From Candidatus Methylomirabilota bacterium (GTDB taxonomy: Bacteria; Methylomirabilota; Methylomirabilia; Methylomirabilales; CSP1-5): DNA of 64,000 nucleotides. Below the pieces are notes generated by a model. It saw only the letters and a list, made by a program, of their open reading frames with translations, was not told the origin of the DNA and made no database searches. The stretch is taken from positions 1,794-65,793 of the forward strand of contig VRUN01000003.1 of the NCBI GenBank assembly GCA_019456075.1, read 5' to 3'. This document shows, piece by piece, positions 7,432 to 41,529 of this stretch (positions within the stretch are counted from its first letter, which is position 1; each line of letters begins with the position of its first letter). The translations under genes and the position numbers were made by a program.

Positions 7432-7443
7432 GCCACCCTGAGG

Positions 7444-8645: not shown

Positions 8646-8674
8646 AAGTGCCAAATACATGGGCAACGACCTCC

Positions 8675-9166
8675 TCAACCCTCGGCGGCCCCGTAGGAGC
8701 GAATGAACGCCCCGAGCGACTGCTGCGCCCCGCGGGACAAGTCGAGGAATTCCAAGCCCGTTTGATAATAGAGAGCTCCGTCTGCCCCGCTGTGACTGAC
8801 CCGGCTGTGCACCACCCGACACTGGATGGTCAACCGCTCCCCATTGGCCATCAGTTGGAGGAAGCAGGGGCTCGCGAGCTGAAGCACGTCTTGGTGTTCC
8901 ACGAGCGCTCCCGACAGGCTCAGATCCAGCACCTCAGCCTCCTGGAGGGTTGTGATGGCCGATGTGATCCCGGAAGTGCGGAATCGCGGAGGCTTCCGCT
9001 TTTGAAGGTCCCTGCGCGTAACTCGTCTGTGGTGTGCCTTTGTCATAGCGTGAACACGCATCAGCGGTTTAGGTCTTCCTGGACGGAAAGCCGGCTCGTC
9101 CCCACCCTGTTTTCGCGATCTTGTCCACCCCAACACCTGCCTGCGAAGCACGTGTTTTCTATGCAA
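8675..9166 (-). CDS. PilZ domain protein
   Basis: 163 aa with RKPPR (RxxxR) and DLSLSGALVEH (DxSxxG), plus ...CRVVHSRVSHS...YYQTGLEFL. It is a paralog of 7641..8522 and 25644..26084. Confidence 0.8.
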   Translation of the reverse strand: MHRKHVLRRQVLGWTRSRKQGGDEPAFRPGRPKPLMRVHAMTKAHHRRVTRRDLQKRKPPRFRTSGITSAITTLQEAEVLDLSLSGALVEHQDVLQLASPCFLQLMANGERLTIQCRVVHSRVSHSGADGALYYQTGLEFLDLSRGAQQSLGAFIRSYGAAEG

Positions 9167-9196
9167 ATATGCGGCCAGGCGTGAGCTTTTTCCCGC

Positions 9197-9979
9197 TCAG
9201 CCCCCCTCGCCCCTGTCGCGCTCGTCTATCTCCACGGCGACGTTGAGGAGCAGGGTTTCCAGATCCTTATCAATGGTCTTGGGAAGATGTGACGCATCTC
9301 GGGACTCAAGGGGAATAAAGGAAAAGTTCCCACTCCGCTCCCGATAGGAAGCCACCACGAGCGCGTTGAATGCCCCTTCTCCCGTCTGTTTTCTGAACTC
9401 CGCGTGCACGACCCGGCCAGACTCAAAGACCATGGCCCCCTCGTCGGCCGACAGGGACAGGACGAGCCGCCCTGATTTCCGGCCAATGGAGACCGCTTGG
9501 GCCACCTCCGTCAAGTCCATAACTGCCAACGAACCCTGAAGGGTGGCTGATGGTGCCTCCTTTGAGGCCATTGGCGTCTTTGCGGCTCGGGCGGAGGGTG
9601 GCGGGGTCGAGACGCCGCGGAGTTTGAGCTGCGTGTCCACGCGGGTCACAAGAGTGGAAGGGGGGGAGTTTTCTGGAAAGACCGTGTCCGCCTCAGTCTG
9701 GGTCGCCACCAGTGCCATCTGTGTCGACCGATCGACCAGGAGGACAAACATAATTTCTTTGGTCGTGGGGTCGGCCCGGACCATTGAGCATAGCTCGGAG
9801 CCGTACATGTCCTCGAACATGGACCGACTGACGATCAGGTCCGGCCGGCGCTGCTTTACACTTGCCAGGGCAGAAGACCCGCTGGTGGCCATCGAGACCT
9901 CGTAGCCCGCCGCTTCGAAGGCCTTTTGAAGCCGAAGGCTGCCGTCTGAATCGGCGTCAACCAGAAGCACCATTGCCAT
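9197..9979 (-). CDS. Receiver-like domain + DUF4388-type domain protein
   Basis: N-terminal CheY-like fold (MAMVLLVDADSDG...PDLIVSRSMFEDMYG), with Arg apparently at the phospho-acceptor Asp position. The C-terminal region matches my memory of DUF4388 (LQGSLAVMDLTEVAQAVSIGRKSGRLVL...GAMVFESGRVVHA...GEGAFNALV). The ORF could also start at GTG 10012. Confidence 0.75.
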   Translation of the reverse strand: MAMVLLVDADSDGSLRLQKAFEAAGYEVSMATSGSSALASVKQRRPDLIVSRSMFEDMYGSELCSMVRADPTTKEIMFVLLVDRSTQMALVATQTEADTVFPENSPPSTLVTRVDTQLKLRGVSTPPPSARAAKTPMASKEAPSATLQGSLAVMDLTEVAQAVSIGRKSGRLVLSLSADEGAMVFESGRVVHAEFRKQTGEGAFNALVVASYRERSGNFSFIPLESRDASHLPKTIDKDLETLLLNVAVEIDERDRGEGG

Positions 9980-10135
9980 GCGAATCCCCCCCAAAGACCA
10001 GCGCGGAAGCACACGGAACCCCGGCGAAACCGGACGGGCCGAGTGCCGTGGCCCAGGGTAACAATCGGCTGCCCCGAGGCTCCCCTGGCCTCCACCCGGT
10101 CAAACCGTGCACCGATCACGATCACGTCTCCGGTC

Positions 10136-10151
10136 TGCAGGGAATGTGCCA
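10136..10151 (-). promoter_or_regulatory. sigma54-type -24/-12 promoter candidate
   Basis: The minus strand reads TGGCACATTCCCTGCA, about 155 nt upstream of ATG 9979. Confidence 0.6.
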
Positions 10152-22787: not shown

Positions 22788-24200
22788 TTAATCATCGTCA
22801 GCCTTTGGCGGCGCCATGGCCTGCCGCTTCTTGCGGGTCTCCGCTGCCCGCCCCTCCTTGGTCACCTGCGCGGCCCGGCCAAAGGCCACCGCGTCCGGCG
22901 GCACCGTCTCCGTGATCGTCGAGCCCGCCGCAATAATGGCCCCCCGCCCCACTCTGATCGGTGCCACCAGGTTTGTGTTGCTCCCCACAAAGACTTCGTC
23001 CTCGATCACCGTCTCGTGCTTCGCAAAGCCATCGTAATTGCACGTGATCGTCCCCGCCCCAATGTTGACCTTCGCCCCCAGCGTCGCGTCCCCGATATAC
23101 GCCAGGTGCGGGACCTTGGCCCCTGCCCCCAGCACCGCTTTCTTCACCTCGCAGAAATTGCCCACCTTCGCCTTCGCCTTCAGCTGACTCTGGGGCCGGA
23201 GATGTGCATACGGCCCGATCACACACCCCTCGGCAATCTCACTCTGGACGATCACGGAGCCGTCCAGGACCGTCACCCCCTCGTCCAGGTGAGCATCCTG
23301 AATCCGGCAGTGGGGATAGAGCACGCACCCCGCCCCGATGGTGGTCGCTCCCTGAAGGACGACCCCGGGGTAGACGACAGTATCGGGGCCGATCGTGACG
23401 GTATCGTCGATATAGGTGGCCGCGGGGTCGAGCAGGGTGACGCCGGCGGCCATCAGGCGCTCGTGCACCCGGTGCCGCAGGAGTGACGCGGCCTGGGCCA
23501 ATTCCGCCCGGGTGTTGATCCCCAGTACCTCGGTGGGATCAGGCGCGAGCAGCGTGTGTACCTTCCGCCTTTGGGACACGTAGACCCGAACCACCTCCGG
23601 GAGGAAAAACTCCCCCTTCACCGGCGAGCGCTTCACCGCCTTCAGCGCCGGGAAGAGGAACGGGCCAGCGAAACAGTAAAGGCTCGTATTGATCTCGCTC
23701 AGACGCTTCTCTTTCGCGGTGGCCTCAACCTCTTCGACAATGCGACGGAGGCGTCCCTGACGGTCACGCAGGATCCGCCCGTAGCCCGTCGGGTCCGCTA
23801 CGCGGGCGGTGAGGAGGGTCGCTACGGCTCTTGCTGCGCGGTGGGTATCAAGGAGCTGTCGCACCGTTTCGTCGGTGAGGAGCGGGGAATCGCCCGCCAG
23901 GACCAGGACGGCCCCGGCAAAGCCCTGGAGCGCCGCCTCAGTCTGCAACACCGCGTGGGCCGTCCCCTGAGGCTCGGCCTGGGAGACAAACTCGACCGGA
24001 CGCCCGGCCAGGGCCTTCCTGACCGCCTCCGCCTGGGCGCCCACCACGACCAGCACCCTTTTCACCCCGAGCCGGAGGCAGAGATCCACCGAATGGTGCA
24101 CCAGAGGCCGGCCTAAGAGGGGGTGGAGGACCTTGACGGTCCCGGATCGCATCCGCGTCCCCTCACCGGCGGCTAAGATCACGGCAGAGACATCGTGCAT
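22788..24200 (-). CDS. glmU: Bifunctional UDP-GlcNAc pyrophosphorylase / GlcN-1-P acetyltransferase
   Basis: 470 aa with N-terminal ILAAGEGTRMRS and C-terminal left-handed beta-helix hexapeptide repeats. Confidence 0.95.
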   Translation of the reverse strand: MHDVSAVILAAGEGTRMRSGTVKVLHPLLGRPLVHHSVDLCLRLGVKRVLVVVGAQAEAVRKALAGRPVEFVSQAEPQGTAHAVLQTEAALQGFAGAVLVLAGDSPLLTDETVRQLLDTHRAARAVATLLTARVADPTGYGRILRDRQGRLRRIVEEVEATAKEKRLSEINTSLYCFAGPFLFPALKAVKRSPVKGEFFLPEVVRVYVSQRRKVHTLLAPDPTEVLGINTRAELAQAASLLRHRVHERLMAAGVTLLDPAATYIDDTVTIGPDTVVYPGVVLQGATTIGAGCVLYPHCRIQDAHLDEGVTVLDGSVIVQSEIAEGCVIGPYAHLRPQSQLKAKAKVGNFCEVKKAVLGAGAKVPHLAYIGDATLGAKVNIGAGTITCNYDGFAKHETVIEDEVFVGSNTNLVAPIRVGRGAIIAAGSTITETVPPDAVAFGRAAQVTKEGRAAETRKKRQAMAPPKADDD

Positions 24201-24507
24201 TTCCGCCTCCTTGGCCCGCCGATCCCGAGTGGGTCAACCTGTCGTCCCGCGGATCATTCGGCGGCCCATATGCTAGCACAGGGCCTTACATGGCGAAAGT
24301 AAAAGCTTGAGGCTCGATGTCCCCATTGCCCGAATTTGGACCACCCGATCCGCTCTGTTTGTCCCAGATCGAAGGCAACAGGGAGATGCGGTCGAAAGAA
24401 TTCGACATCCTCCTCGATGTCGAGCGGTACAGTCCGATATGACGAAGAGGGTGCAAAATCAATGCCCAACCGTCCAGCCTTTTCGCAAATGAGGAGACAG
24501 ACCCGGG

Positions 24508-25431
24508 TCATCCGTGTAAATAGCCGAAGCGGCGGAGGGCCTCCGCATCCTTCCGCCACGCCTTGCGGACCTTGACCCACAGGCCCAGATAGACGCGGGT
24601 GCCGAAGATCCGCTCGATTTCGTTGCGGGCTTGCTGGCCGATCTTCTTGAGCATCTGGCCCCCGGCCCCAATCAGGATCCCCTTCTGGGAATCCTTCTCG
24701 ACATAGATGGTGGCCTGGATGTCCATGATCCGCTCCTCCTGCCGCTCTCCCATCTCGTCGACCTGAACGGCCACGGCGTAAGGGACCTCCTGGTGCATCA
24801 GTTGGAAGACCTTTTCCCGGATAATTTCAGCCACCAAAAGATATTGGGGCTGATCCGTCGCCTGCTCAGGTGGAAAGAAACGAGGGGCCTCTGGAAGATA
24901 CGTGATCAGGATGTGCTCTAACCGGTCCATGTTGACCCCCTCCGTGACTGAGATGGGTATCACCTCAGCTGATGGCATCAGTTTCTGACACGCATCGATC
25001 ATGGGAAGGAGTTCCGGCTTCGCCCTGACCAGGTCCACTTTATTCAGGGCAACGACAATCGGGGTTTGGACCTCCCTCAGATGTCCCTGAATCTGCCGAT
25101 CCTCATCGGAAAGGGGACCGGAGGCATCGATCATCCAGAGAATGAGATCCACATCGTCTAAGGTCTTGAGGGCGAGCCGGACCATCTCCCGATTAAAAAG
25201 GGTCTCGGCGTGGTGGATGCCAGGGGTATCCCAGAAGATCATCTGGTACATCTCGGTCGTCTTCACGCCAGCAATCCGATTGCGGGTGGTTTGGGGCTTC
25301 GGTGAAACAGCAGTCACCTTCTGACCCACAAAGCAGTTCATCAGCGTGGACTTGCCGACATTGGGCCGACCAATGATGGCAATAAAACCTGCCTTATGAT
25401 CCGCGGGAACTTTGGTCATATTGGCGCCCAT
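24508..25431 (-). CDS. era: GTPase Era
   Basis: GRPNVGKSTL P-loop, DTPG, NKVD and a C-terminal KH domain. Confidence 0.95.
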   Translation of the reverse strand: MGANMTKVPADHKAGFIAIIGRPNVGKSTLMNCFVGQKVTAVSPKPQTTRNRIAGVKTTEMYQMIFWDTPGIHHAETLFNREMVRLALKTLDDVDLILWMIDASGPLSDEDRQIQGHLREVQTPIVVALNKVDLVRAKPELLPMIDACQKLMPSAEVIPISVTEGVNMDRLEHILITYLPEAPRFFPPEQATDQPQYLLVAEIIREKVFQLMHQEVPYAVAVQVDEMGERQEERIMDIQATIYVEKDSQKGILIGAGGQMLKKIGQQARNEIERIFGTRVYLGLWVKVRKAWRKDAEALRRFGYLHG

Positions 25432-25643: not shown

Positions 25644-26084
25644 TCAACTATTCACTGACCGGATCGGTTCAAGAGTGCCAAGAAATTCTAGCCCGCTTCG
25701 ATAAATCACATCGCGCTCCCCGTTAGACCCGAGCTCAGATCGGTGGGCCACCGAGCAGACCACCCGACACCTCAGCCCCATCTTTTTCTCGGGAAACAAG
25801 AGGCGCAGGAACAAGGCCGTCCCAGGCTGGACCGGGTTTAAGTGCTCCACCAGGGCCCCCCCCTGGCTGATATTGATAAGAGTGACCTCGTGGATAGGGG
25901 TAATCCGCGCCACGAACAGGTCTCCTACTTCTCCCACGACCCATCGGGGATAGTGCCGCCGGTTTTCCTTCACCCGCCTCACTCGCACGACTCGACCTCG
26001 TCGCAACCTTTCGCCTTGGAGAGCCACAACGACCCTCCCGGGCCGTACCGGACCCGAGAAGGCAGCGCCTGACGATGGACTCAC
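25644..26084 (-). CDS. PilZ domain protein
   Basis: RRHYPR..., NISQGGALVEH, CRVVCSVAHRSE, YRSGLEFL. The GTG start overlaps the upstream stop (GTGA). Confidence 0.8.
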   Translation of the reverse strand: MSPSSGAAFSGPVRPGRVVVALQGERLRRGRVVRVRRVKENRRHYPRWVVGEVGDLFVARITPIHEVTLINISQGGALVEHLNPVQPGTALFLRLLFPEKKMGLRCRVVCSVAHRSELGSNGERDVIYRSGLEFLGTLEPIRSVNS

Positions 26085-26824
26085 GGTTCGGTCAGCGGCT
26101 GCTCCCCTTCTCCTTCCGGCGTTGCCTCATCCGAGTCGACGAGCTGTCGAAGGAGGGCGCCGATAAGGAAGAGCTCCTTCCCGATGTCGTCCGAGCAGAA
26201 CCGCAGGCCGTGGAGCACGCTCTCTAGGGTGGGAGCACTGCGATTCCACACCACTTCCATCTCCGCCTCCACCGCGGGAAGGGTAAACCACGGGGGAATC
26301 TCAACGGTCAGCAGCGTGCGAGGAGAGAGCCCCTGGCCGACGGCGAGCTGCAGGCCGCCCTCGCTGATATTCTCGGCTTGACCTGTCACGCGCATATCTG
26401 GGGGAATCCTGCAGGCGACTTCCAGGGCGATCGGCAGGCGGACAGAGGCCCGGGGGGTCGGGCCCGCCTGGAGGACCAAGAGCCGTTCCCAGGTGGCAAG
26501 GTCGCCCCCCGTCAGTGCGGTGAATTTGAGACCCATCCGGGACGGGGGATCTTCGGCTTTCCAGACCACCACTGCTTCAGCCCGAGCGTTACGGTCCCCC
26601 GTGAGCAAGAGGAGGTTTATTGACGTACCCGCGGCCAGCGGCTGTGGGACCTCGAGCAGGAGCCCGTCCCGGCTCACGTTTTGCGTGAGACCGACGGTCC
26701 GGTAGACGGAGACCGCCGGGCTCTCACAAAAGACAGGCATCCGAAGCGGAAGCCGGGGATGCTGGCGGGTCGCGGCATGGTCCATGCGCTCTTCCACGGT
26801 CGCTCTAGGTCGCTTTGTATTCAT
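26081..26824 (-). CDS. Tandem (di-)PilZ domain protein
   Basis: There are two PilZ-like modules. The first is RQHPRLPL...QNVSRDGLLLE and the second is RASVRLPI...ENISEGGLQL. Confidence 0.78.
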   Translation of the reverse strand: MNTKRPRATVEERMDHAATRQHPRLPLRMPVFCESPAVSVYRTVGLTQNVSRDGLLLEVPQPLAAGTSINLLLLTGDRNARAEAVVVWKAEDPPSRMGLKFTALTGGDLATWERLLVLQAGPTPRASVRLPIALEVACRIPPDMRVTGQAENISEGGLQLAVGQGLSPRTLLTVEIPPWFTLPAVEAEMEVVWNRSAPTLESVLHGLRFCSDDIGKELFLIGALLRQLVDSDEATPEGEGEQPLTEP

Positions 26825-26908
26825 CCTCTATGTGGGTCGGTAGCCAATTGAGAATTAGGAGAGTCCTAGGATTATACCCCGGGGCATCTCCGTCGCACGC
26901 GATTTTGA

Positions 26909-27400
26909 TTACACGCTGAGCGCGCTTACAATCCCCTTCAGCCGAGCGGGACTAATGGGCTTCTCGAGAAACTCCAATACCTTCAGCTCCTCTGCCTGAG
27001 TCTTGACATGCTTACTCTCTTCAGCGCCAACCACAACGATGGCAATCGCTGGATTGAAGGCCCGGAAGATGCGCACGAGATCCCAACCGCTCAGGGCGAC
27101 GCCATGAACTGGAGGAAGGTCGAGGTCAATAATAGCGACCTCGAAAGGATAATCCTTTATCTTCTTGATGGCCTGCCAGCTATCTGCAGCGGTCTCGACG
27201 GCATACCCGGCTCTGAGGAGCGACACCCGTAATCCCTCTCGGCTATGGAGTTCATTATCCACGACAAGAATCTTCTTTTGTTCCGGTGCTGGCACACTAG
27301 GCTGCTCAACGCGGACCGGCGTTTCACCGCTTTCCGGCCTGCGCAGCAGGGCTCGTTTAGCCACACCACGCTTTTGAGGGGCAATTCGTCTTTTCCCCAT
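26909..27400 (-). CDS. Single-domain CheY-like response regulator
   Basis: KKILVVDNE...VAIIDLDLPP...LEKP receiver domain preceded by ~50 basic residues. Start chosen at ATG 27400. The longer ORF to 27583 has non-protein-like sequence and would cover the promoter. Confidence 0.78.
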   Translation of the reverse strand: MGKRRIAPQKRGVAKRALLRRPESGETPVRVEQPSVPAPEQKKILVVDNELHSREGLRVSLLRAGYAVETAADSWQAIKKIKDYPFEVAIIDLDLPPVHGVALSGWDLVRIFRAFNPAIAIVVVGAEESKHVKTQAEELKVLEFLEKPISPARLKGIVSALSV

Positions 27401-27550
27401 TTCGCTCTTTGGGAGGATGCCTTCAGGCGACCGTACGGACAAGAAGGAACGCTCGCCGTAAGTGCATCGAGCACTAGTGCTAGGGTCTGCCGTTATAAAG
27501 CACGCTGGTATGAAGGGCACTTCCAGAAAAAATCCTCTTGATGCGCATAA

Positions 27551-27566
27551 GGCAGGCTCCATGCCA
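27551..27566 (-). promoter_or_regulatory. sigma54-type -24/-12 promoter candidate for the REC-diPilZ-PilZ operon
   Basis: The minus strand reads TGGCATGGAGCCTGCC, about 150 nt upstream of ATG 27400. Confidence 0.6.
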
Positions 27567-27676
27567 AACCGGGCAAGATTCACTCAAGGAGCCAGGAACC
27601 CTCGATTTTCGGGGCATTGTTCCGCATCCCCAGCGTAAGAAATCTGGAGAGCGAGGCTTTTCCCAACTGCGATGCG

Positions 27677-27720
27677 TGTAAGATTTACACGGGGCCGATG
27701 TAAGGATTACACGCGGCCGA
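27677..27720. promoter_or_regulatory. Tandem 22-bp repeat with internal palindromes (candidate enhancer/UAS)
   Basis: tgtaagatttacacggggccga and tgtaaggattacacgcggccga are 19/22 identical. Each contains TGTAA-N3-TTACA. Their centres lie about 118 and 140 bp upstream of the -24 element. Confidence 0.5.
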
Positions 27721-27797
27721 GGGAGCGAAATTGCAGCCAGGGTAACGCGAGAGGACAGCGTGTTCCAAAGCGATGAAAGATGCCAAAGGCTATCGTT

Positions 27798-28241
27798 TCA
27801 TCTTACCGCGCCTACCAGTTCTTCTGCTAGGATGAGCGCCTTGTCTGCGAGATTATAAGCCCTGGAGAAATCCTTGACCGAAAGAGCCTCTCTGGCCTTG
27901 GACAGGAAGCTCTGAATGGTCGACACGAACTCCTGTTGGTCCTTGGCTAGCGTTTTCTGGTCAATGCGTTTAAACGTCTCCTCCGCTCCGTCGATTTTCG
28001 CCTCGGCCTGCTGCCTCAGCTGGGCCTCTTCCTCACGGCCCACTTGGGGAGCAAGCTTGCGAGGGGGAGCGGATGGCTCCTCTGTGACGGGCCCCGGTTT
28101 TGGCGGGGCCTCCCCAGGTTTCGATTTGGCACAGCCCGCAATGATGACTGCGAGGAGAATGAGGGAGCAGAGTGGTCTCGTTACTGCCGCTCCTTTCGAT
28201 TCTCTCGCCTCACTGCAAGGCATCTCTCTCTGCCAGCTCAA
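27798..28241 (-). CDS. Putative lipoprotein, function unknown
   Basis: Signal peptide with lipobox LAVIIAGC, a Pro-rich linker and a helical C-terminus. It immediately follows the histidine kinase gene. Confidence 0.65.
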   Translation of the reverse strand: MSWQREMPCSEARESKGAAVTRPLCSLILLAVIIAGCAKSKPGEAPPKPGPVTEEPSAPPRKLAPQVGREEEAQLRQQAEAKIDGAEETFKRIDQKTLAKDQQEFVSTIQSFLSKAREALSVKDFSRAYNLADKALILAEELVGAVR

Positions 28242-28249
28242 GATTGGGA

Positions 28250-30052
28250 CTATCCTACTGGAAGTCGCACGATCATGGTCGTCCCCCGCCCCACCTCCGA
28301 CAAGACCTCGATGAGGCCGTCATGCATCTGCACGACCCGGTAGACCAAGGAGAGGCCGATACCGCTTCCACCGGATTTTGTCGTGTAATAGAGCTGAAAG
28401 ATCTTGTCGGTGTCTTCAGGCGGGATCCCAACGCCGGTGTCGGCGATGCACACCTTGACAAACTCCCACCCCTCCCGTTCCGTCAGAATGTTGACGGTTC
28501 CTCCGGTCGGCATCGCCTGACAGGCGTTTAGCAGGATGTTCAAGAAGGCCTGCCTGAGCAGCTCTTCGTCGGCAGCCATGAGAGGAAGACTGCGATCAAA
28601 ATGGAAGGTGAATTGGATATCCTCTTTCTGCCATTCAGTCCCCAGGAGGGCCACCACATCTTTGAGTAGCGCGTTTAGGTCCAGCAGCTTCAAGCTCAGC
28701 TCCTCAGGGCGGATAAACTTCAAAAACCCCTGGACGACCCGATCCAAGCGCCGAATCTCGCTCCCGATGACCTCGAGGCTCTGGTGAACCTCTTCAGAGG
28801 GAGCGTCGAGCCTTTCCCTCAAGAGTTCGAGATGGATCATCATGGCGTTGAGAGGGTTTTTGACTTCGTGGGCCACGCCTGAAGTGAGCCTCCCAAGTGC
28901 CGTCAGTTTCGCCGAGTAGCTGATCAAGGACTGGACGGTCTTGATCGATTCCAGATCTTTCAGAGCTACCATGGCCCCCATCGCCCGCTGGGCATCCGTC
29001 ACGAAGAAAACCGACACCAGAAATTCCTTGTGGCCTCCGTCCCGGGGCACCGCGATGGCGGCATTGCGAAAGCCGGTTTGCTGCTCAAAGGCGTGCTCCA
29101 GCAAAGGGCGGAGGGGATGGGATAGCTCCAGCATCTCCTCCCACGGCCATCCGACGACTTGCTCGAGTGGCCTGGCCACAACGACCTCAGCGGCTTTGTT
29201 GAAGAAGAGGATCCGGCGGTCCTGGGTGAAGAGGATGATTCCATCCTCTAAGTGATCGACGACTTGCTGGAGTTGAGCCTTCTCGCTCAGCATCTTGAGG
29301 CGGTCTGCCTGCAGTTGCTGGCCCATGAGCTGGAGCTGGGAGGTCAGTTCACCAATCTCGTCCCCCCGACCGTGGGCGCCTCTCACCTCGAAGTCACCCC
29401 GCCCGATGCGGTCCACGTCCCGGGTGAGCTTCCGGATAGGCTTCAAAATCAGGGTGCCTAAACCCATCGCGACGAGCCAGGCCACGGGCAGGGCGAGGCC
29501 GGCGAGGGCAAGGCTTTTTCGCACCGAAGCGTTCAGCTCTCTTTTCAACAGGCTGGTGGCGATCCCGAGCCGGATGCTCCCGAAGGGCTTGTCGTTGAGG
29601 CTGAGGGGCAACTTGGCCTCGTAGATTTTTCCTGTCTCGTACAGGGCGAGGAAGCGGCCGATGGGATGGAGGGAGAGGAGCTCTTCTAGGCTTGGTCTCT
29701 CGGGGGCGTCTGCGCCCTCCTTTTCCCGTTCGCTGTGGAAGATCATCTTCCCTTTTTGGTCGGCGATCAGCGCGTACAGGAGGTGAGGCGAGTAACCGAT
29801 ACTCGCGTCAAGGAGACTTCTCAACTCCCCATCGCTCCTCAATGTCTCCGAGGGATCTTCGCCTCGCGCCCGAGAGAGGGAGCGGCTGCTTTGGGCGTAC
29901 ACTTGTCTGGCGATGAGCTCAGCCTGCCGCAACGCCTCTTGGACGACGACCCGAGTCAACTGGGAAAGGTGGATGAAGGTGGTGGTGGCCACCACCAGAA
30001 AGGTCAAGAGGGTAATGACCACCGCCTCTTTTCCTTTGACGCCAAACCGCAT
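28250..30052 (-). CDS. Sensor histidine kinase (TM-HAMP-PAS-HisKA-HATPase)
   Basis: 600 aa with H-box SGVAHEVKNPLN, an N/G boxes region (LLNACQAM, DTGVGI, GGSGIGLSLV) and a HAMP-like segment after the second TM. Confidence 0.9.
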   Translation of the reverse strand: MRFGVKGKEAVVITLLTFLVVATTTFIHLSQLTRVVVQEALRQAELIARQVYAQSSRSLSRARGEDPSETLRSDGELRSLLDASIGYSPHLLYALIADQKGKMIFHSEREKEGADAPERPSLEELLSLHPIGRFLALYETGKIYEAKLPLSLNDKPFGSIRLGIATSLLKRELNASVRKSLALAGLALPVAWLVAMGLGTLILKPIRKLTRDVDRIGRGDFEVRGAHGRGDEIGELTSQLQLMGQQLQADRLKMLSEKAQLQQVVDHLEDGIILFTQDRRILFFNKAAEVVVARPLEQVVGWPWEEMLELSHPLRPLLEHAFEQQTGFRNAAIAVPRDGGHKEFLVSVFFVTDAQRAMGAMVALKDLESIKTVQSLISYSAKLTALGRLTSGVAHEVKNPLNAMMIHLELLRERLDAPSEEVHQSLEVIGSEIRRLDRVVQGFLKFIRPEELSLKLLDLNALLKDVVALLGTEWQKEDIQFTFHFDRSLPLMAADEELLRQAFLNILLNACQAMPTGGTVNILTEREGWEFVKVCIADTGVGIPPEDTDKIFQLYYTTKSGGSGIGLSLVYRVVQMHDGLIEVLSEVGRGTTMIVRLPVG

Positions 30053-30053
30053 C

Positions 30054-31406
30054 TTACACCCCGTAGCGACGCAGCTTGTTGTGGAGAGTCTTCAGGCTCA
30101 CCCCTAAGATCTCGGCAGTTTTTGTCTTGTTATTGTTTACCGAGGCGAGCGTCCTCAGGATGAGGTCCTTCTCCGCTTTCTCGAGGCTGATCCCGACCGG
30201 GATGTTGACAAAGTCAGGACTCTCGTCCCTCGCCTTGCCCGCGAGGTTTGAGGGGAGGTGTTTTGGGGAAATGAGTTCAGTCTGGCAGGCGATAACAGCC
30301 CGCTCGATCGTATTCCGTAACTCTCGCACGTTTCCCGGCCATGGATACCGAGAGAAGAGTCGCAGCGTGGCTTCATCGACCGATTTGATCTGCTTCTCGT
30401 ATTTGGTGTTCAACTCCTCAATGAAGGCCTGAACGAGTAAAGGGATGTCCTCCCTCCGCTCCCTGAGAGGGGGGAGGGAAAGGTTAAAGACGTTCAAGCG
30501 GTAGTAAAGATCCTCCCTTAAGGATCCCTCATCAATCGCCTTCAGGGGATCCTTATTGGTCGCAGCCAGGACCCGCACATCCACCTTGATCTCTGCCTTC
30601 CCCCCGAGCCGCCTCACCGTACCGTCTTCAAGGATCCGCAGGAACTTGGCTTGGGTCGAAGGACTCATCTCGGCGATCTCGTCGAGGAAGATCGTTCCTC
30701 CATGAGCCATCTCGAAACACCCAATTCGCCGCTCCATCGCGCCGGTGAACGCCCCCCGCTCATGTCCGAAGATTTCGCTCTCCAACAGCGTCTCCGGGAT
30801 GGCCGAGCAGTTCACGGCGACGAAGGGCCGCTGGTTCCGGGGCGAAAGCTCATGGAGGATATGCGCCACCAGCTCCTTGCCAGTCCCACTCTCTCCGTAG
30901 ACCAGCACGGGGGCAGAGGTCGGGGCCGCGAGATCAATCAACCGGTAAAGGTCCTGCATGGTCCGGGCCGTGCCGACTATCTTCCCATACCCCCACACCT
31001 CCTTCAGCCGCCGCCGAAGGAGAGTCACCTCCCGAAGTGCTTCCCCTTTCTCCAGGGCCCGTTGGACCAGAGTTCTCAGTCTTGGAACGTCTACCGGCTT
31101 TGTCAGGAAGTCGTAGGCCCCCTCCTTCATGGCGGCGACCGCCGTCTCGATCGTGCCATGGCCGGTGAGGATGATGACCGTGGCGAAAGGCAACTCCTCC
31201 TGAATGGCCTTCAAGAGTCCTAGCCCATCGAGTTTAGGCATGACGAGATCGGCGATGACGACGGCTGGGAGGAAGGCCACGCCCTTCTGTAAAGCATCCT
31301 CCCCGTCAGACGCTTCCTCGACCTCGTACCCCCAGTTGGATAGGAGCGCCTTCAGCCCCTTTCGGGAAGCCCCTTCATCGTCGGTAACTAAGATTCGATG
31401 CCCCAT
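30054..31406 (-). CDS. sigma54-dependent response regulator (NtrC family bEBP)
   Basis: REC (ILVTDDEG...VIADLVMPKLDG), AAA+ with GESGTGKELVA and GAFTGA, and a C-terminal Fis-type HTH (KTKTAEILGVSLKTLHNKLRRYG). ATG 31406 has a GGAGGGAGG RBS. Confidence 0.93.
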   Translation of the reverse strand: MGHRILVTDDEGASRKGLKALLSNWGYEVEEASDGEDALQKGVAFLPAVVIADLVMPKLDGLGLLKAIQEELPFATVIILTGHGTIETAVAAMKEGAYDFLTKPVDVPRLRTLVQRALEKGEALREVTLLRRRLKEVWGYGKIVGTARTMQDLYRLIDLAAPTSAPVLVYGESGTGKELVAHILHELSPRNQRPFVAVNCSAIPETLLESEIFGHERGAFTGAMERRIGCFEMAHGGTIFLDEIAEMSPSTQAKFLRILEDGTVRRLGGKAEIKVDVRVLAATNKDPLKAIDEGSLREDLYYRLNVFNLSLPPLRERREDIPLLVQAFIEELNTKYEKQIKSVDEATLRLFSRYPWPGNVRELRNTIERAVIACQTELISPKHLPSNLAGKARDESPDFVNIPVGISLEKAEKDLILRTLASVNNNKTKTAEILGVSLKTLHNKLRRYGV

Positions 31407-31746
31407 CCTCCCTCCAATGCTGTGCAAAACACCAAGGAGTGCGCGAGATCTAGGCGAGGGCCATGCCTTACCCTGGCACCATCATGGATTTCTCCGTCGA
31501 GGGCCGGAGTATCACCCAAGCTGCGATCCCTGTCAAGAGCCTGGTGCATAACACGCCAGGGTGAATCGGAGGAGGCGATCTGCCGGACCACCCAGACGGT
31601 CCTCGTGGATGGCGGCTTCCCGTGAGACCTAAGCGACCACCCGATTCTGCAAGCGAGCCGCTTCCCCAGGAGGGCCTGAGTCGAGAGGTCCTTGATCAAC
31701 CCTGAAGGGAATTGAGATCAGATGTGCAAGATTCTTTCATGCTGAC

Positions 31747-32187
31747 TCACGATTGCTCTTTGTACGCAATCGCAAGAAGTCGGGCCTGTTTGGCCCACAT
31801 GCGGCGACGGGCCGCGGGGGTCGTATCGTCGTAGCCCAAGAGGTGGAGGATGCCATGGACTAAAAGGAGAGCAAGCTCCTGATCAAGGGAATAGCCGTGT
31901 TCTTTGGCCTGGCGAGCGGCGGTCTCGACCGAGATGACCACATCGCCTAGGAGATGGGGCTGCGGTGATGGGGAACCCTTTTGCTGCGGAAAAGCCAGGA
32001 CGTCGGTGGAACGATCATGGTTCAAATACGTCTGATTGAGCCGCCGAATAGCCCGATCACCGACGAGAAGTACCGAGACCTCATTCCTCGGTCTGCCCAA
32101 GACGTATAATGTCTTCTCCCCCACCCTTTTTAGCCGTGACAGCCCGACCCGCCGCCTCTTTTGCCGATTTCGGATCTCTATCCTCAT
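31747..32187 (-). CDS. ybeY: rRNA maturation endoribonuclease YbeY
   Basis: HGILHLLGYDD zinc motif. Start taken at MRIEIRNRQ (ATG 32187), which overlaps the upstream gene by ~107 nt. Confidence 0.88.
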   Translation of the reverse strand: MRIEIRNRQKRRRVGLSRLKRVGEKTLYVLGRPRNEVSVLLVGDRAIRRLNQTYLNHDRSTDVLAFPQQKGSPSPQPHLLGDVVISVETAARQAKEHGYSLDQELALLLVHGILHLLGYDDTTPAARRRMWAKQARLLAIAYKEQS

Positions 32188-33757
32188 CCCCTTTCCTCTC
32201 ACCCTCCTTCTTCTTGACCTCTTCGAACTTGTACCCGGGATAGTCCACCCGGTGGTGGTGGATGGCTGTGAGGACGCGGACAAAGGCCTTGGCAATCCGG
32301 TGCAGGTCCTTCAGGGTGAGATCACATTCGGACAGTTCCCCCTCGATAAAGATCGTGTTCACGATCCGATTGACCAGTCCTTGCACCCGGGCCGGCGTGG
32401 GGTCGGTCAGTGTCCTCCCCGCCGCTTCGACCGCATCGGCCAGCATTAGAATCGCCGCCTCCCTCGTCTGGGGCCTGGGGCCCGGGTAGCGGTAATCCTC
32501 TTCCTTCACCTCGCCGAGATCAGGATCCTGGGACTCTTTGGCCCTCTCGTAAAAATAGGTGACGAGGCGAGTGCCGTGGTGCTGCGGAATCATGTCTACA
32601 ATGGCAGGCGGCAGCCGGTGTTCCAGGGCCATCTCGATCCCATCCTTGACGTGGGAAATGAGGATGAGACTACTCAGACTCGGAGACAGCTTATCGTGCC
32701 TGTTCATAGCGTCCATCTGGTTCTCAATAAAGTAGGCTGGTTTCTTCACTTTGCCGATGTCGTGATAGTACGCGCCGACCCGACAGAGGAGAGTATTGGC
32801 GTCGATAGCGTCGGAAGCCGCCTCCGACAGCTCCCCCATCATCAAGCTATGGTGGTACGTCCCGGGAGCCGTCTTCATGAGTTGCTTGAGCAGGGGCTGG
32901 TTCAGGTTGGAGAGTTCGAGGAGTTTCAGATCGGTGGTGGTCCCGAAGAGATACTCCAGGATGGGGAGAAGCGTTGAGGCGAAGAGGGCAACCACCACCC
33001 CGTTCACGATGCAGGCCACCAGATCATACGCCAACGCTGGGGCTGACCAGCCGTAGATCGGGATGAAGACAACAATGGAGCCGACATTGGCCAAGGCGAC
33101 CCAGCATCCCGCCTTGAAGAAGGCGGTTCGGTCCTGGGACCGCCGGATGCTAAACGCCCCGACGATAGCCCCGATCAGTCCAAACAGGAGGAAAGTCACC
33201 TCATCCGTCACCATGACCGTGGTCAGTATGCCGAGGGCAATAGCCCCCCCAAAGGCCGTTCGGGCATTAAAGAGGACGGAGAGCAGCACACTGCCCAGGG
33301 CCACGGGGATCGTGTAGTAGAAAGACTGAAGAGAAATGAAGGAAAAACTGTGGTTTAAGGACTGGAGGACGACCAGGAGAAAGCGGTTGATCAGGATGGC
33401 CAGGAGGACCACCGTCCCAAGGAGGTACAGGTGCTTGGGGGACACTACCGGCCGGACCTCGAGGAACCGAACATAAAAGTAGAGGGCCCCGAGCACGAAA
33501 AGGGCGAGACAGCTGATCGCCACGACCGAAACAGGCCCTAGGGGTAAGGGACGATAGGAGGCAACCACCAGGCCTACGGTCACGACCAGCAGGATCCCCA
33601 GGACCAGGGGAATTACGGGTCGCTCCTCCGAGGTCCGAAAGAGTCTCCCCATCGGGGAGAGGCGGTAGCGATAGGCAGGCAGGGTCGTCGGCTTGCTGGC
33701 CATCTTGCTGTCGTTACCCTTCTTCGCCCCTGACGCAACCCACTGCGAGATCTTCAT
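32081..33757 (-). CDS. 7TM-HD (HDIG) membrane phosphohydrolase, PgpH/YqfF-like
   Basis: Multi-TM N-terminal region and an HD domain (YHHSLMMGELS, YYHDIGKVKKP). Confidence 0.88.
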   Translation of the reverse strand: MKISQWVASGAKKGNDSKMASKPTTLPAYRYRLSPMGRLFRTSEERPVIPLVLGILLVVTVGLVVASYRPLPLGPVSVVAISCLALFVLGALYFYVRFLEVRPVVSPKHLYLLGTVVLLAILINRFLLVVLQSLNHSFSFISLQSFYYTIPVALGSVLLSVLFNARTAFGGAIALGILTTVMVTDEVTFLLFGLIGAIVGAFSIRRSQDRTAFFKAGCWVALANVGSIVVFIPIYGWSAPALAYDLVACIVNGVVVALFASTLLPILEYLFGTTTDLKLLELSNLNQPLLKQLMKTAPGTYHHSLMMGELSEAASDAIDANTLLCRVGAYYHDIGKVKKPAYFIENQMDAMNRHDKLSPSLSSLILISHVKDGIEMALEHRLPPAIVDMIPQHHGTRLVTYFYERAKESQDPDLGEVKEEDYRYPGPRPQTREAAILMLADAVEAAGRTLTDPTPARVQGLVNRIVNTIFIEGELSECDLTLKDLHRIAKAFVRVLTAIHHHRVDYPGYKFEEVKKKEGERKGDEDRDPKSAKEAAGRAVTAKKGGGEDIIRLGQTEE

Positions 33758-33848
33758 CGTCCCCTCAACGCAAACGAATCCCCCCAGGGCTCACGGCGAT
33801 GATTACCTATCGGATGGAAGGTCACGGGTTGGACTCGCAGCTGACTCC

Positions 33849-34880
33849 TCAGTCTCCCTGTGCCGTTTCCGTGTCCTCCCCGTGCCGCTTGAGGTCTTCG
33901 GAGGAGAGGGATCGGGTCTGGCGTTCCTCATAGGCACGAATGATCTGCTGGACGAGCTCGTGGCGAACGACGTCCTCCTGGCCAAGGTAGACGAATTCAA
34001 TCCCCTTGACATCCTGGAGGACCGAACGAACCTCGATAAGTCCTGAGGTTTTTCCGGGAGGAAGGTCTACCTGAGTGATGTCGCCAGTGATCACCACCTT
34101 CGAACTGAATCCGAGCCGGGTGAGGAACATCTTCATCTGCTCAGAGGTGGTGTTCTGAGCCTCGTCGAGGATGATGAAGGCATCATTTAAGGTACGCCCC
34201 CTCATGAATGCTAGAGGGGCAATTTCGATGACACCCATCTCGATCAAGCGGTTCACTCGCTCCGTCTCGAGCATGTCGTACAGCGCATCGTACAGGGGAC
34301 GTAGGTACGGGTGGATTTTCTCGTACAGGGTCCCGGGGAGAAACCCGAGTCGCTCTCCCGCCTCCACTGCTGGGCGGGTGAGGATGATCCGACTCATCTG
34401 TCGCTTCAAATGGGCCGAGACGGCCATCGCCATCGCCAGGTAGGTCTTGCCGGTCCCGGCGGGGCCAATGCCAAAGACGATGTCGTGTCTCCGGATGGCG
34501 TCAATATAATACTGCTGTCCGAGGCTCTTGGGTCGGACCGGGCGCTTCTTAGGAGAGACTTCAATCACGTCATCCTGGATCATCCGGAAAGTCTCATCCT
34601 CCTCCCGAGCTATGTGCCGGAGGGCCAGCTTCACATCGTGGCTTCCGATGTCCCTTCCCCCTTCCAGGAGCCTGGTGAGTTCGCCGATTACCTTTTCGGC
34701 GATGCCGACCTGCTGCTCAGGCCCGCTAATGATTAGCCGCCCATCCCGGGCCACCAACCGCACGTGGAGACAATCCTCCACCATTCGTATGTGTTCATCG
34801 TTCCGGCCGAACAGCGCCTGAATCTTCGGTCCGGAAGGCAGAGAGACCTGCCTCCGAACGGCTGCATGCTCATCTGTCAT
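33849..34880 (-). CDS. phoH: PhoH-family ATPase (YbeZ-like)
   Basis: Walker A GPAGTGKTYLAMA, ILDEAQN, and an N-terminal KH-like extension. Confidence 0.92.
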   Translation of the reverse strand: MTDEHAAVRRQVSLPSGPKIQALFGRNDEHIRMVEDCLHVRLVARDGRLIISGPEQQVGIAEKVIGELTRLLEGGRDIGSHDVKLALRHIAREEDETFRMIQDDVIEVSPKKRPVRPKSLGQQYYIDAIRRHDIVFGIGPAGTGKTYLAMAMAVSAHLKRQMSRIILTRPAVEAGERLGFLPGTLYEKIHPYLRPLYDALYDMLETERVNRLIEMGVIEIAPLAFMRGRTLNDAFIILDEAQNTTSEQMKMFLTRLGFSSKVVITGDITQVDLPPGKTSGLIEVRSVLQDVKGIEFVYLGQEDVVRHELVQQIIRAYEERQTRSLSSEDLKRHGEDTETAQGD

Positions 34881-39605: not shown

Positions 39606-40568
39606 TTAGAGGGGCCCGCCGAAGTTCTCCGTGAGGTTCAGGGGGGCGGTGAGCTCCCCTCCTCGTTCCAAGAGCCTGGCCTTCTCAATGACGACAGCGG
39701 CGTGCATAGCGATGGCCTCGAGCAGCCGTAGATCCGCCTCGGCAAACGGGCGCCCGTCGGTGTGATTGAGAAGCTCCACGACGCCGATGATCCCCTGACT
39801 CGTCTTCAAGGGGGCGGACAGGATCGAACGGGTGACAAAGCCGCTTTCCTGGTCCATCTCGGCAGAGAAGCGGTGATCAGTGCTGGTGTCGGAAACCAGG
39901 ACGCCCTCGCCGTTCTGGACAACCCACCCGGCGATGCCCTGGCCGGCCGCCAGTCGGCGCCCGCGGAGCTGTTCCGCAACGCGCCCCAGGGCGACGGCGA
40001 AAACCAATTCCCCTGTGGTCTCATCCCGCAAGAGCAGGGACCCCGCCTTGGCGTGCAGGGCGGCACCGATCCGCTCGATGGCCAGTTCGAGTACTGTCTG
40101 GAGGTCATGGGCGGAATTGAGGATGGTCGCCACCTGGTTAAGGGCCTCAAGCTCTTCGATCCGCCGCCTGAGCACCATGATGTCCTCGAGAAAGGTCACT
40201 TCCTGGCCCTTCGGGGCGCCATCCAGAAGCTCCCGGAAAAAGCAGTCGACCAGCTCCTTATGCTCATCGGGATTGGTGATCATAACCCGGCGCGCCTTCC
40301 GCTCCGACACAAGGGGAAGGCGGGTGATCTCCGTGGTACACTCCACCATTTGGGAGACCAGGCCAGCTTTTTCGAAGATCGGCTTCAAAGAGATGGTACC
40401 GATCTTAACCTCCGCCGAGGCGTAGTCGTACCATCGGTTGACATATCCCAACCCGTTGTCCCAAACGAAGGGATGCTGCCCCGGCGGGTCGGAATGGCCC
40501 ACATCCAGTGCTTCGGCCCGCTTCTGGGCCTGGTTGCGTTCGTCCGAGGTGATGTAAAACTTGATCAT
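39606..40568 (-). CDS. GAF-domain protein with uncharacterised N-terminal domain
   Basis: C-terminal GAF (LQTVLELAIERIGAALHAKAGSLLLRDETTGELVF...GIAGWVV...IGVVELLN). I do not recognise the N-terminal ~170 aa. ATG 40568 is preferred over TTG 40670. Confidence 0.8.
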   Translation of the reverse strand: MIKFYITSDERNQAQKRAEALDVGHSDPPGQHPFVWDNGLGYVNRWYDYASAEVKIGTISLKPIFEKAGLVSQMVECTTEITRLPLVSERKARRVMITNPDEHKELVDCFFRELLDGAPKGQEVTFLEDIMVLRRRIEELEALNQVATILNSAHDLQTVLELAIERIGAALHAKAGSLLLRDETTGELVFAVALGRVAEQLRGRRLAAGQGIAGWVVQNGEGVLVSDTSTDHRFSAEMDQESGFVTRSILSAPLKTSQGIIGVVELLNHTDGRPFAEADLRLLEAIAMHAAVVIEKARLLERGGELTAPLNLTENFGGPL

Positions 40569-40786
40569 AGCGTCCTTGTTCTTGGGGTTAGGGGGGATTT
40601 TTTGCAATATCAATGCTAAGAATTTCGATCGGATAGCCTCCAGCCGCTGCTGCTGGCAGGGGTGAGACAATGCTCATCCCCCCCCCTGAAGAACGAGAAG
40701 TGAAATGAGGGGGGGAAGGGATCACCCTCAGGGGCTGTTTTGGGGCAGTCCTAGTTGTCCAGGCAGTGGCTCCAGCCGGTCAGTGC

Positions 40787-40802
40787 TGGCATGGTTCTTG
40801 CT
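40787..40802 (+). promoter_or_regulatory. sigma54-type -24/-12 promoter candidate for di-PilZ gene
   Basis: TGGCATGGTTCTTGCT, ending 37 nt upstream of ATG 40840. Confidence 0.65.
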
Positions 40803-40839
40803 CAGTCCAAGACAGGTCGACCCGTGCGGGAGGCAAGGG

Positions 40840-41529
40840 ATGCCTACGAATTCAAAGACACTGATGCGCCGCCACCTCCGCTTTACCCGCTATCTGCCCG
40901 TTCAGTGCACGGTCCTAAGCCCCGATGAAATCGAGCCGCGACCGCTCGCCGGGATAACCCAGAACGTGAACGCCGGTGGACTCGAAATCCTGCTGCCAGA
41001 ACCCCTCCCAGTCAAGACGCTGGTGTCGGTCCGCGTCACTCATGGTGATCCCGTGCCCGGACATATCGTTTCAGTGGGCGACGGTATACCGACCCTACTC
41101 GGGAAGAGATTCCCCCACGGCGTGGCCTTCGAGGAGCCGGTCGAGCCATCCCTCGTTCGGCAGTGGGTGTCCCACCCCCCCAAACGGGCCCATCCCCGGG
41201 TGCAGGTCCAATTCGACGTCGCGTACGCACAGGCAGGGACGACCGGTCACGGAACGTGCCTCAACTTGTGCCAGGGAGGATTGTTCATCGCAACCGACCG
41301 CCCGGCCGAGCCGGACACAGAGGTCATGCTTCACTTCAAGCTGCCGAGCTCATCTCAACCTCTTTCGGTCCGTGGGCGCGTCGCGTGGATTTCCGGGGCG
41401 GAAAAGGACCCGGTTGCCATCACTGGAATGGGTGTGCAGTTTCTCGATCTCGGCCCATCAGATACTACTGCGATCGGCACCTTCGTCGATCGCCTCTGCG
41501 CAGAGGGATCGCCACCGGACTTCTCCTAG
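40840..41529 (+). CDS. Tandem (di-)PilZ domain protein
   Basis: There are two modules. The first is RRHLRFTR...QNVNAGGLEIL and the second is RAHPRVQV...LNLCQGGLFIA...GMGVQFL. ATG 40840 follows a GGGAGG-like RBS. Confidence 0.8.
   Translation: MPTNSKTLMRRHLRFTRYLPVQCTVLSPDEIEPRPLAGITQNVNAGGLEILLPEPLPVKTLVSVRVTHGDPVPGHIVSVGDGIPTLLGKRFPHGVAFEEPVEPSLVRQWVSHPPKRAHPRVQVQFDVAYAQAGTTGHGTCLNLCQGGLFIATDRPAEPDTEVMLHFKLPSSSQPLSVRGRVAWISGAEKDPVAITGMGVQFLDLGPSDTTAIGTFVDRLCAEGSPPDFS

Follow-up and report, generated by a model that had tools for sequence, protein, structure and literature searches.

A predicted sigma-54-dependent two-component module preceding receiver and PilZ genes in a Methylomirabilales bacterium

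Six co-oriented genes lie on the minus strand (25644-31406) of a 64,000-nucleotide stretch of DNA (the window, 64 kb) from a Candidatus Methylomirabilota bacterium, contig VRUN01000003.1. They encode, in order, a sigma-54 activator (bacterial enhancer-binding protein, bEBP), a histidine kinase, a lipoprotein, a single-domain receiver, a tandem-PilZ protein and a single-PilZ protein. The host is a methane-oxidising NC10 (Methylomirabilales) bacterium, and database homologues are labelled candidate division NC10 or Methylomirabilales. The locus raises the question of whether the kinase and activator switch on the genes that follow them, and whether the receiver and the PilZ proteins, predicted receptors of cyclic di-GMP (c-di-GMP), then act together. 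An earlier note on this DNA had proposed such a circuit, and open reading frame (ORF), Pfam and sequence scans recovered each of its elements at or near the place it gave. On balance, we favour a sigma-54-dependent two-component module inducing a receiver and PilZ c-di-GMP adaptors as the probable explanation. The module is a new arrangement of already known signalling parts, not a novel type of system. Its features are as follows (loci compared with the window carry L numbers).

31508-31536, minus strand: candidate sigma-70-type promoter of the activator-kinase-lipoprotein operon, TTGACA-17-GATACT (consensus scan 10/12, pattern match only)
30054-31406, minus strand: sigma-54 activator with receiver, AAA+ and Fis-type helix-turn-helix (HTH) domains (Pfam)
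28250-30052, minus strand: membrane histidine kinase, ordered transmembrane segment, periplasmic single Cache domain, transmembrane segment, HAMP, PAS, HisKA, HATPase (Pfam)
27798-28223 (or 28241), minus strand: lipoprotein with lipobox, proline-rich tether and C-terminal three-helix bundle (sequence and AlphaFold2 (AF2) model)
27699-27711: predicted enhancer site 1, promoter-distal, TGTAAGGATTACA; the minus strand reads TGTAATCCTTACA (motif scan)
27677-27689: predicted enhancer site 2, promoter-proximal, TGTAAGATTTACA; the minus strand reads TGTAAATCTTACA (motif scan)
27604-27610, minus strand: conserved A-rich GAAAATC box in the enhancer-promoter interval (recurring at one relative position in the window, L005, L010, L016, L018, L154 and L155)
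27552-27566, minus strand: predicted sigma-54 -24/-12 promoter TGGCATGGAGCCTGC (TGGCA-N7-TGC scan; predicted transcription start near 27541)
26909-27400, minus strand: single-domain receiver with a basic 43-residue N-terminal tail (Pfam Response_reg, E 3e-16)
26871-26876, minus strand: TATAAT-like hexamer in the gap between receiver and tandem-PilZ genes, possible weak internal promoter (sequence reading; a scan made no call, and a -35 element is lacking)
26081-26824, minus strand: tandem-PilZ protein, alternative start ATG 26785 (two Pfam PilZ stretches, E 3.5e-19)
25644-26084, minus strand: single-PilZ protein with a basic N-terminal tail (Pfam PilZ, E 3.8e-6)

The argument for transcriptional control begins with the intergenic region ahead of the receiver gene. 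The earlier note had given this gap as 210 bp, a figure that used the longest ORF (GTG 27583) and is not borne out. That start does not hold: it would place the promoter inside the gene, and alignment of orthologues from five species fixes the start at ATG 27400. The intergenic region therefore spans 27401-27797 (397 bp), with a receiver leader of about 140 nt. The tandem palindromic repeats and the -24/-12 promoter that had been read in the gap are both present, by scans and by alignment. The repeats are two 13-bp TGTAA-N3-TTACA palindromes, 22 bp apart (27677-27711), arranged as a direct repeat of 22 nt; the 64 kb contain no further match, against an expectation of 0.14. TGGCA-N7-TGC occurs five times in the window against 1.7 expected. 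Between the end of site 2 and the promoter TGGCA there are 110 bp, and the corresponding distance is 107-123 bp in most other matched loci.

An alignment of the intergenic region from five species has a mean identity of 56%, and its only invariant blocks are both palindromes and the promoter. The sequence TTGGCATGG...TGCCTT is invariant in the five species and recurs in a second target operon described below; TTTGGCATGG...TGCCTT is likewise invariant in the five-species alignment. As aligned, these invariant islands are a clear phylogenetic footprint. Sequence, spacing and cross-species invariance agree with those predicted for a -24/-12 promoter (TGGCAC-N5-TTGC, its GG and GC elements 10 bp apart) with enhancer sites some 80-150 bp upstream. 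The GAAAATC box is possibly an IHF-type DNA-bending site, its match to the IHF consensus being imperfect. A conserved RNA structure in the leader was considered and rejected (RNAalifold -3.2 kcal/mol, little covariation, no Rfam match). A literature search on the TGTAA/TTACA motif with enhancer-binding proteins returned nothing relevant.

The neighbouring activator is the obvious candidate to act at these sites. It contains Response_reg (1.6e-25), Sigma54_activat (1.5e-68), AAA_lid_14 and HTH_8 (8e-12) domains, and its translation shows GAFTGA and the Walker A motif GESGTGKE. A receiver with its acceptor Asp, a GAFTGA-bearing AAA+ domain and a C-terminal Fis-type HTH identify it as an NtrC-family bEBP. 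It is not NtrC proper (TIGR01818 ntrC, 418 bits against a cut-off of 559), and its best NCBIfam models, AtoC, NtrC and ZraR, all score under cut-off (AtoC 438 against 714 bits; ZraR 372 against 760). The closest solved chain is 4l4u, an NtrC-family regulator. The Aquifex aeolicus NtrC-family activators (4l4u, 1ny5, 3dzd) match it co-linearly over the full length of receiver, AAA+ and DNA-binding domains (E 1.6e-106); they differ from it in organism, partners and targets, and the comparison is of the protein alone, not of DNA sites. Orthologues in five related loci are 84-88% identical. The activator and kinase are the sole sigma-54 activator and the sole kinase within the window, where rpoN was not found.

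The kinase gene starts 1 nt past the activator stop codon, as the ORF coordinates confirm. Its Pfam domains are sCache_3_2, HAMP, PAS, HisKA and HATPase_c, and it falls short of the NCBIfam cut-offs for AtoS (287 against 646 bits), ZraS (198 against 479) and NR(II) (107 against 240). By these profiles it is a membrane sensor nearest the AtoS and ZraS models that reaches neither family. The label 'NtrB/NtrC-type' given earlier to the pair therefore holds at superfamily level only: a membrane sensor below all curated cut-offs is not NtrB-like. The lipoprotein has the lipobox IIAGC, with G30-C31-A32 invariant among homologues, and its AF2 model has helices at 59-85, 94-115 and 119-140 (block-mean predicted local distance difference test (pLDDT) about 88-98 for residues 61-140). 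It matched no Pfam or NCBIfam family. Homologues come after the kinase in L151, L152, L004, L005 and L028, and a 130-aa gene without a family match occupies this slot in L154. The lipoprotein is a probable periplasmic partner of the kinase. An L-x-x-[DE]-Q-Q motif had prompted the idea of a CpxP/Spy/ZraP-like regulator; the idea was dropped because the AF2 model shows a generic bundle of three helices, for which the PDB gave no significant match.

The E. coli-type systems AtoS/AtoC and ZraS/ZraR are among the closest known. Each likewise combines a membrane kinase with an NtrC-family receiver-AAA+-HTH activator, and a small periplasmic accessory protein (ZraP) may be encoded alongside. Activators of the AtoC/ZraR class use paired palindromic enhancers about 100 bp upstream of the -24/-12 promoter of an adjoining target operon. 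The window pair scores far below the equivalog cut-offs for these systems and would target receiver and PilZ genes, not metabolic or chaperone genes. Its lipoprotein, modelled as a bundle of three helices, matches none of ZraP, CpxP and Spy, and the recognition sequence is TGTAA-N3-TTACA.

Does the pairing of activator and sites extend beyond this locus? Metagenome contigs were scanned for the tandem palindrome, and 120 contigs (about 240 locus strands) were returned. TGGCA-N7-TGC lies within 250 bp of the tandem sites on 21 of the ~240 strands, against about one expected, and mostly 108-123 bp away. The G+C content of many of these contigs, 37-49%, does not sit easily with Methylomirabilales, an order at about 60%. 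In seven unrelated low-GC contigs an activator homologue lies upstream of the sites in the same orientation, and five of these homologues match over the full length at 42-47% identity; those in L066 and in the truncated L145 are 27-30% identical. The activator gene ends 34-46 bp from the sites in L066, L115, L133 and L145 and 2.5-3 kb from them in the other three of the seven, and a -24/-12-like element lies 110-120 bp beyond the sites in 5/7. The recognition helix LGIS[LR]KT[LI][HY]NK is common to the window activator and the low-GC homologues. Across high- and low-GC lineages, sites and a homologous activator occur co-oriented on one contig in at least 12 independent loci, often no more than 50 bp apart.

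The low-GC loci L133 (3818-7006), L115, L108, L097, L121, L066, L145, L076 and L120 have a kinase-activator pair followed by tandem sites and, about 110-120 bp away, a -24/-12 element. The genes downstream of the sites, named here from sequence only, encode among others a receiver-like protein without the acceptor Asp (in L133), small proteins resembling FliS, NAD enzymes of thioester-reductase type, an MMPL-like transporter and a REC-HD-GYP protein.

Other loci separate the core of the module from its cargo. L151, L152 and L154 have no PilZ gene and encode an activator (450 aa), a kinase (600 aa) and a small protein (130-157 aa; a homologue of the lipoprotein in L151 and L152), followed by enhancer, promoter and receiver. 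In L153, from a Tectomicrobia metagenome-assembled genome (MAG), and in L090, both compared from the sites onward, sites and promoter precede a receiver gene, then small genes and PBP1A. L155 has a receiver gene with no kinase or activator nearby and with palindrome and promoter 113 bp apart. The genes that follow the receiver outside Methylomirabilales encode a class A penicillin-binding protein (PBP), often with glycine-zipper or DUF3568 lipoproteins in between, or are, in L154, small ORFs with no family match. Four of the receiver loci without PilZ genes extend as follows.

L151, 8001-10470: receiver locus without PilZ
L152, 8001-12879: receiver locus without PilZ
L153, 2115-5883: receiver locus without PilZ
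L090, 558-4930: receiver locus without PilZ

Read across these loci, the conserved core is activator, kinase, lipoprotein, enhancer/promoter and receiver, and the PilZ genes are a Methylomirabilales-specific addition. Since the core recurs without PilZ in other lineages, and the lone receiver gene of L155 keeps site and promoter, the receiver is the constant predicted target.

Within Methylomirabilales, the order PhoH, 7TM-HD, YbeY, then activator, kinase, lipoprotein, receiver and tandem PilZ, then Era and GlmU is kept in L004/L006, L005, L010+L029 and L028. Copies of the tandem-PilZ protein at 65-80% identity always stand in the window's gene order. Conservation of this order, proposed in the earlier note as a check on its reading, is thus borne out for the core through tandem-PilZ and fails for the single-PilZ gene. 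The same holds more widely for the notion of a single fixed module: the core through the receiver is conserved, cargo varies by lineage, the single-PilZ gene decays and the regulon is wider. At L028 10662-11945, the single-PilZ slot holds a gene for a 427-aa lipoprotein with two CxxCH motifs (dihaem cytochrome c); with the second operon's dihaem cytochrome as tblastn query, it gave no match at E <=1e-5.

That second operon occurs in related Methylomirabilales (L018, L016, L023, L019, L071, L147, L048, L062, L091 and L118) and has matching tandem sites, promoter (TGGCATGG..TGCCTT) and spacing. Its products are a bactofilin, a zinc-ribbon protein and a lipoprotein of the dihaem cytochrome c kind (about 460 aa, two CxxCH haem motifs); L016, L023 and L071 lack the first two of these genes. 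Enhancer and promoter always have the same neighbourhood, between a tandem-PilZ paralogue with a CREG/DUF2470 gene and the operon genes. Coordinates were assigned in four loci.

L018, 11699-14845: second operon
L016, 11535-13191: second operon
L147, 4937-7583: second operon
L071, 3352-5004: second operon

L005, which has the main locus, and L018 belong to one MAG, and a single genome therefore has at least two operons with the enhancer. On this sequence pattern, the regulon extends past the window locus. Published evidence disfavours connecting a bactofilin under this enhancer with the polygonal shape of Methylomirabilis cells: that shape has been put down to the S-layer, with cytoplasmic filaments excluded (PMC8671808).

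What, then, would the receiver do? Its family comprises 248 matches, the best 120 of the 248 at 55% identity or more. The family alignment shows no variation at the acceptor Asp (D92) or at Lys K147, and Lys-Pro is kept; the consensus has DD and a Ser at the T87 position. The beta3-alpha3 loop is five residues longer, with an invariant G-W and a nearly invariant Asp next to it. Within the window, the receiver nearest to this stand-alone one is the activator's own, and the two have in common an unusual alpha1 motif, SR.GL. The low-GC activator receivers carry F-R (or F-S) at this position, and so does the receiver-like protein of L133, the single comparable case. The matching alpha1 motifs hint at a kinase common to both receivers. 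Residues 1-43 (27272-27400) form the basic tail, with 12 K/R and an isoelectric point (pI) of 11.6.

The PilZ proteins are predicted c-di-GMP receptors, as the earlier note had read them. All three domains retain RxxxR and NxSxxG (RQHPR/NVSRDG and RASVR/NISEGG in the tandem protein, RHYPR/NISQGG in the single one), and the motifs are invariant in the family; R20, R24, S154, G157, R125 and R129 of the tandem-PilZ protein are among the residues invariant in 30 homologues. Motifs, Pfam matches and a barrel fold with PilZ structural matches are together those of PilZ c-di-GMP receptors. The AF2 model of the tandem protein (pLDDT 84) has two beta-barrels, each followed by a C-terminal helix. Its best Foldseek matches, MotI/DgrA (5vx6), MrkH (5ked), PlzD (2rde), PlzA (7mie) and YcgR (5y6f), likewise have two consecutive PilZ barrels in about 220-250 residues. 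They match at domain level only, with a template modelling (TM) score of about 0.34 and a root-mean-square deviation (rmsd) of about 15 Å; both window barrels are canonical, and the relative orientation of the domains differs. The protein is not a YcgR/MotI-type brake, its N-terminal barrel itself being a canonical PilZ domain with no YcgR-N Pfam match. It also stays below the cut-off of TIGR02266, the Myxococcus paralogous PilZ family (53.7 bits, and 20.1 for the single-PilZ protein, against 68.7).

According to a published survey, one domain of a tandem PilZ protein is typically canonical and the other degenerate. A profile search returned about 100 clusters of similar co-linear proteins (E <=1e-10), and both motif sets were present in 23/85 full-length representatives. 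Double-canonical tandem PilZ proteins are uncommon in the literature, but by this sequence measure neither unique nor rare among uncharacterised relatives. The tandem-PilZ family itself forms 75 database clusters, and all those with a named source are NC10 or Methylomirabilales. The exact protein is not on record in the gene-position collection; a relative is 99% identical. A literature search on Methylomirabilis with PilZ gave nothing relevant.

The start of the single-PilZ gene overlaps the tandem-PilZ stop codon (GTGA, 26084-26081), an overlap that is real and can be read directly from the sequence. The protein is a paralogue of the PilZ protein encoded at 8675-9166 of the window, 31% identical from residue 14. 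GTG 26084 is the preferred start because the paralogue aligns from residue 14 and there is no other start codon upstream of that residue. GTG 26027 is preceded by a strong Shine-Dalgarno sequence (GGGAGG) but was rejected, since the alignment extends upstream of it.

We propose that the Cache-domain kinase would sense a periplasmic signal, perhaps with the tethered lipoprotein, and phosphorylate the NtrC-family activator. The activator would bind both TGTAA-N3-TTACA sites, which are two helical turns apart on one face of the helix, and act from about 110 bp upstream on the -24/-12 promoter at 27552-27566. The first product, the conserved target, would be the receiver, most likely a second phospho-acceptor of the same kinase serving as a feedback sink or a branch. 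In Methylomirabilales the transcript would add the tandem-PilZ protein and, in the window genome, the single-PilZ protein. These would most likely be c-di-GMP-dependent adaptors, binding the nucleotide and contacting the receiver or its partners, and the signal at the kinase would set the amount of c-di-GMP-reading machinery in the cell. We consider the transcriptional wiring by the neighbouring pair quite likely, given the invariance of enhancer and promoter and the co-location of the activator; to this extent the earlier proposal, that the pair drives a sigma-54 promoter before the receiver-PilZ genes, is supported, and what does not stand is that these form one fixed module. Coupling between the receiver and the PilZ proteins is a tentative suggestion that draws on analogy.

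The best mechanistic precedent for that coupling is HapZ-SagS of Pseudomonas aeruginosa, in which a PilZ adaptor binds a receiver domain and gates phosphotransfer. Here too a PilZ protein with intact c-di-GMP motifs would be tied to a two-component receiver. HapZ is a single-domain PilZ protein acting on the receiver of a hybrid kinase, whereas the window has a tandem PilZ and a stand-alone receiver, and the two are likened by role, not by sequence. PixA of Myxococcus xanthus and the 'cluster 10' di-domain PilZ proteins unite receiver and PilZ in one polypeptide; in the window these are separate genes behind a predicted sigma-54 promoter. By analogy, the existence of such fusions suggests that the separately encoded pair may cooperate. 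PixB has two PilZ domains but differs in carrying an additional acetyltransferase domain and in having no Ser in its second motif. As a sign of contact, the charged tails, basic at the receiver N-terminus and acidic at the tandem-PilZ C-terminus (26081-26137, 7 D/E), carry little weight, since paralogues unlinked to a receiver have the acidic one too.

A more elaborate version of the coupling, which we regard as doubtful, is a c-di-GMP-gated phosphorelay valve. The induced receiver would drain or redirect phosphoryl groups from the activator, and the tandem-PilZ protein would bind the receiver only at particular c-di-GMP levels. With both c-di-GMP sites functional, it would possibly dock through the receiver's lineage-specific basic tail.

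Several observations weigh against the favoured explanation, and most of them bear on the PilZ genes. Cargo differs between lineages, L151-L153 and L090 having PBP1A and glycine-zipper lipoproteins and L154 having small ORFs, and the third gene is frameshifted in L005, cut off early in L004/L006, where an extra tandem-PilZ gene stands next to it, or replaced. The PilZ genes could thus be passengers and not partners of the receiver. The spacer ahead of the tandem-PilZ gene ranges from 84 bp to ~340-370 bp among species and, with its TATAAT-like hexamer, suggests that the PilZ genes may also have a promoter of their own; each genome, moreover, has 4-5 tandem-PilZ paralogues, mostly stand-alone. 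If so, the sigma-54 promoter and enhancer would control only the receiver, as a feedback element, and the PilZ genes would be lineage-specific passengers with a weak promoter and no tie to the kinase pathway. We think this rather unlikely. Receiver and tandem-PilZ genes are adjacent in all five Methylomirabilales species that have the module, and the terminator scan found none between the downstream genes. The basic receiver tail occurs only in orthologues with a tandem-PilZ gene next to them (5/5, against 0/5 without). A sigma-54 promoter as a general trait of tandem-PilZ genes was also rejected: TGGCA-N7-TGC occurs within 400 bp upstream in 0/25 stand-alone paralogues, and the operon copy therefore appears to have been placed specifically under sigma-54 control. 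Read-through from the kinase operon is a further complication, and a possible one since the scan found no terminator after the lipoprotein gene either. The window receiver itself has DN for DD and, like the rest of its clade, a Gly where Thr87 would stand; normal switching may suffer from these changes. More generally, sequence and comparison show which parts are there, how they are ordered, and that enhancer, promoter and activator are conserved and occur together, and every functional step is a prediction.

The identity of the regulator and the nature of the output invite two further alternatives. Fis-type HTH domains are broadly alike across NtrC-family proteins, which makes the recognition helix weak evidence of specificity, and at least one receiver gene with a site (L155) is unlinked to any activator; another sigma-54 activator, encoded elsewhere, might therefore bind TGTAA-N3-TTACA while the neighbouring pair regulates other genes. 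We consider this very unlikely in view of the 12 or more independent loci in which sites and a homologous activator stand together, and there is no further activator in the 64-kb window. Because the recognition helix is fairly alike superfamily-wide, co-location is the stronger argument. Alternatively, the tandem-PilZ protein could itself be the output, a c-di-GMP-dependent nucleic-acid-binding regulator like MrkH or PlzA, with the receiver uninvolved. MrkH and PlzA are among the best structural matches, and PlzA is described as binding DNA and RNA in a c-di-GMP-dependent manner (PMC9915621). Motor-brake proteins score equally in these domain-level matches, and the tandem-PilZ protein is acidic (pI 5.1) with an acidic tail; a nucleic-acid-binding output is the least probable of the readings considered here.

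The signalling block sits between ybeY and era, inside a conserved housekeeping cluster (22788-25431 and 31747-34880), with phoH, a 7TM-HD gene of PgpH type and ybeY upstream and era and glmU downstream. The candidate sigma-70-type promoter falls within the 340-bp gap after ybeY; in relatives, the spacer between ybeY and the activator is 0.3-3 kb and contains extra small genes.

The window has a second receiver/PilZ cluster on the minus strand (6213-10151).

9197-10012, minus strand: REC-DUF4388 protein
8675-9166, minus strand: PilZ protein
7641-8522, minus strand: 293-aa protein with a C-terminal PilZ domain
6213-7220, minus strand: REC-HD-GYP protein, likely a c-di-GMP phosphodiesterase

Sigma-54-like sites lie in intergenic gaps of this cluster (TGGCATGGTTCCTGC at 8631-8645 and TGGCACATTCCCTGC at 10137-10151). 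Another tandem-PilZ protein is encoded at 40840-41529 on the plus strand, within a stretch of interest at 40787-41529 (two Pfam PilZ stretches, RRHLR/NVNAGG and RAHPR/NLCQGG); a sigma-54-like site, TGGCATGGTTCTTGC, lies 39 nt upstream, and a divergent gene for a GAF-domain protein occupies 39606-40670. Each of the window's four intergenic TGGCA-N7-TGC sites thus stands ahead of PilZ or receiver genes, the fifth (52197-52211) being inside an ORF. A search around the three remaining sigma-54-like promoters of the window gave no palindromic enhancer. A selenocysteine tRNA gene (7337-7427, plus strand; Rfam tRNA-Sec, 76.6 bits) lies within a 124-aa minus-strand ORF, 7217-7591, that has no Pfam match.

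Links between c-di-GMP and sigma-54 usually run through activators that bind the nucleotide themselves, such as FleQ and VpsR. If the wiring proposed here is true, the logic is reversed: the phosphorelay and sigma-54 would decide whether c-di-GMP receptors and a second receiver are made. The valve, if true, would go further and close a feedback loop: c-di-GMP would act on a two-component pathway by way of a receiver and a PilZ protein that are induced together and encoded as separate genes. Both the gain and the duration of a sigma-54 envelope regulon (bactofilin, periplasmic dihaem cytochrome and, in sister lineages, PBP1A) would then be governed by the second messenger. The predicted target genes (receiver, PilZ, bactofilin, dihaem cytochrome, PBP1A and small outer-membrane lipoproteins) point to an envelope-related response, and this would concern a group without a genetic system. 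The comparison also defines a previously unnamed clade of activators, with two TGTAA-N3-TTACA sites about 110 bp from the promoter across phyla. The recognition sequence is clear and cross-phylum, and the regulon of uncultured methane oxidisers and related organisms should therefore be open to prediction from sequence.

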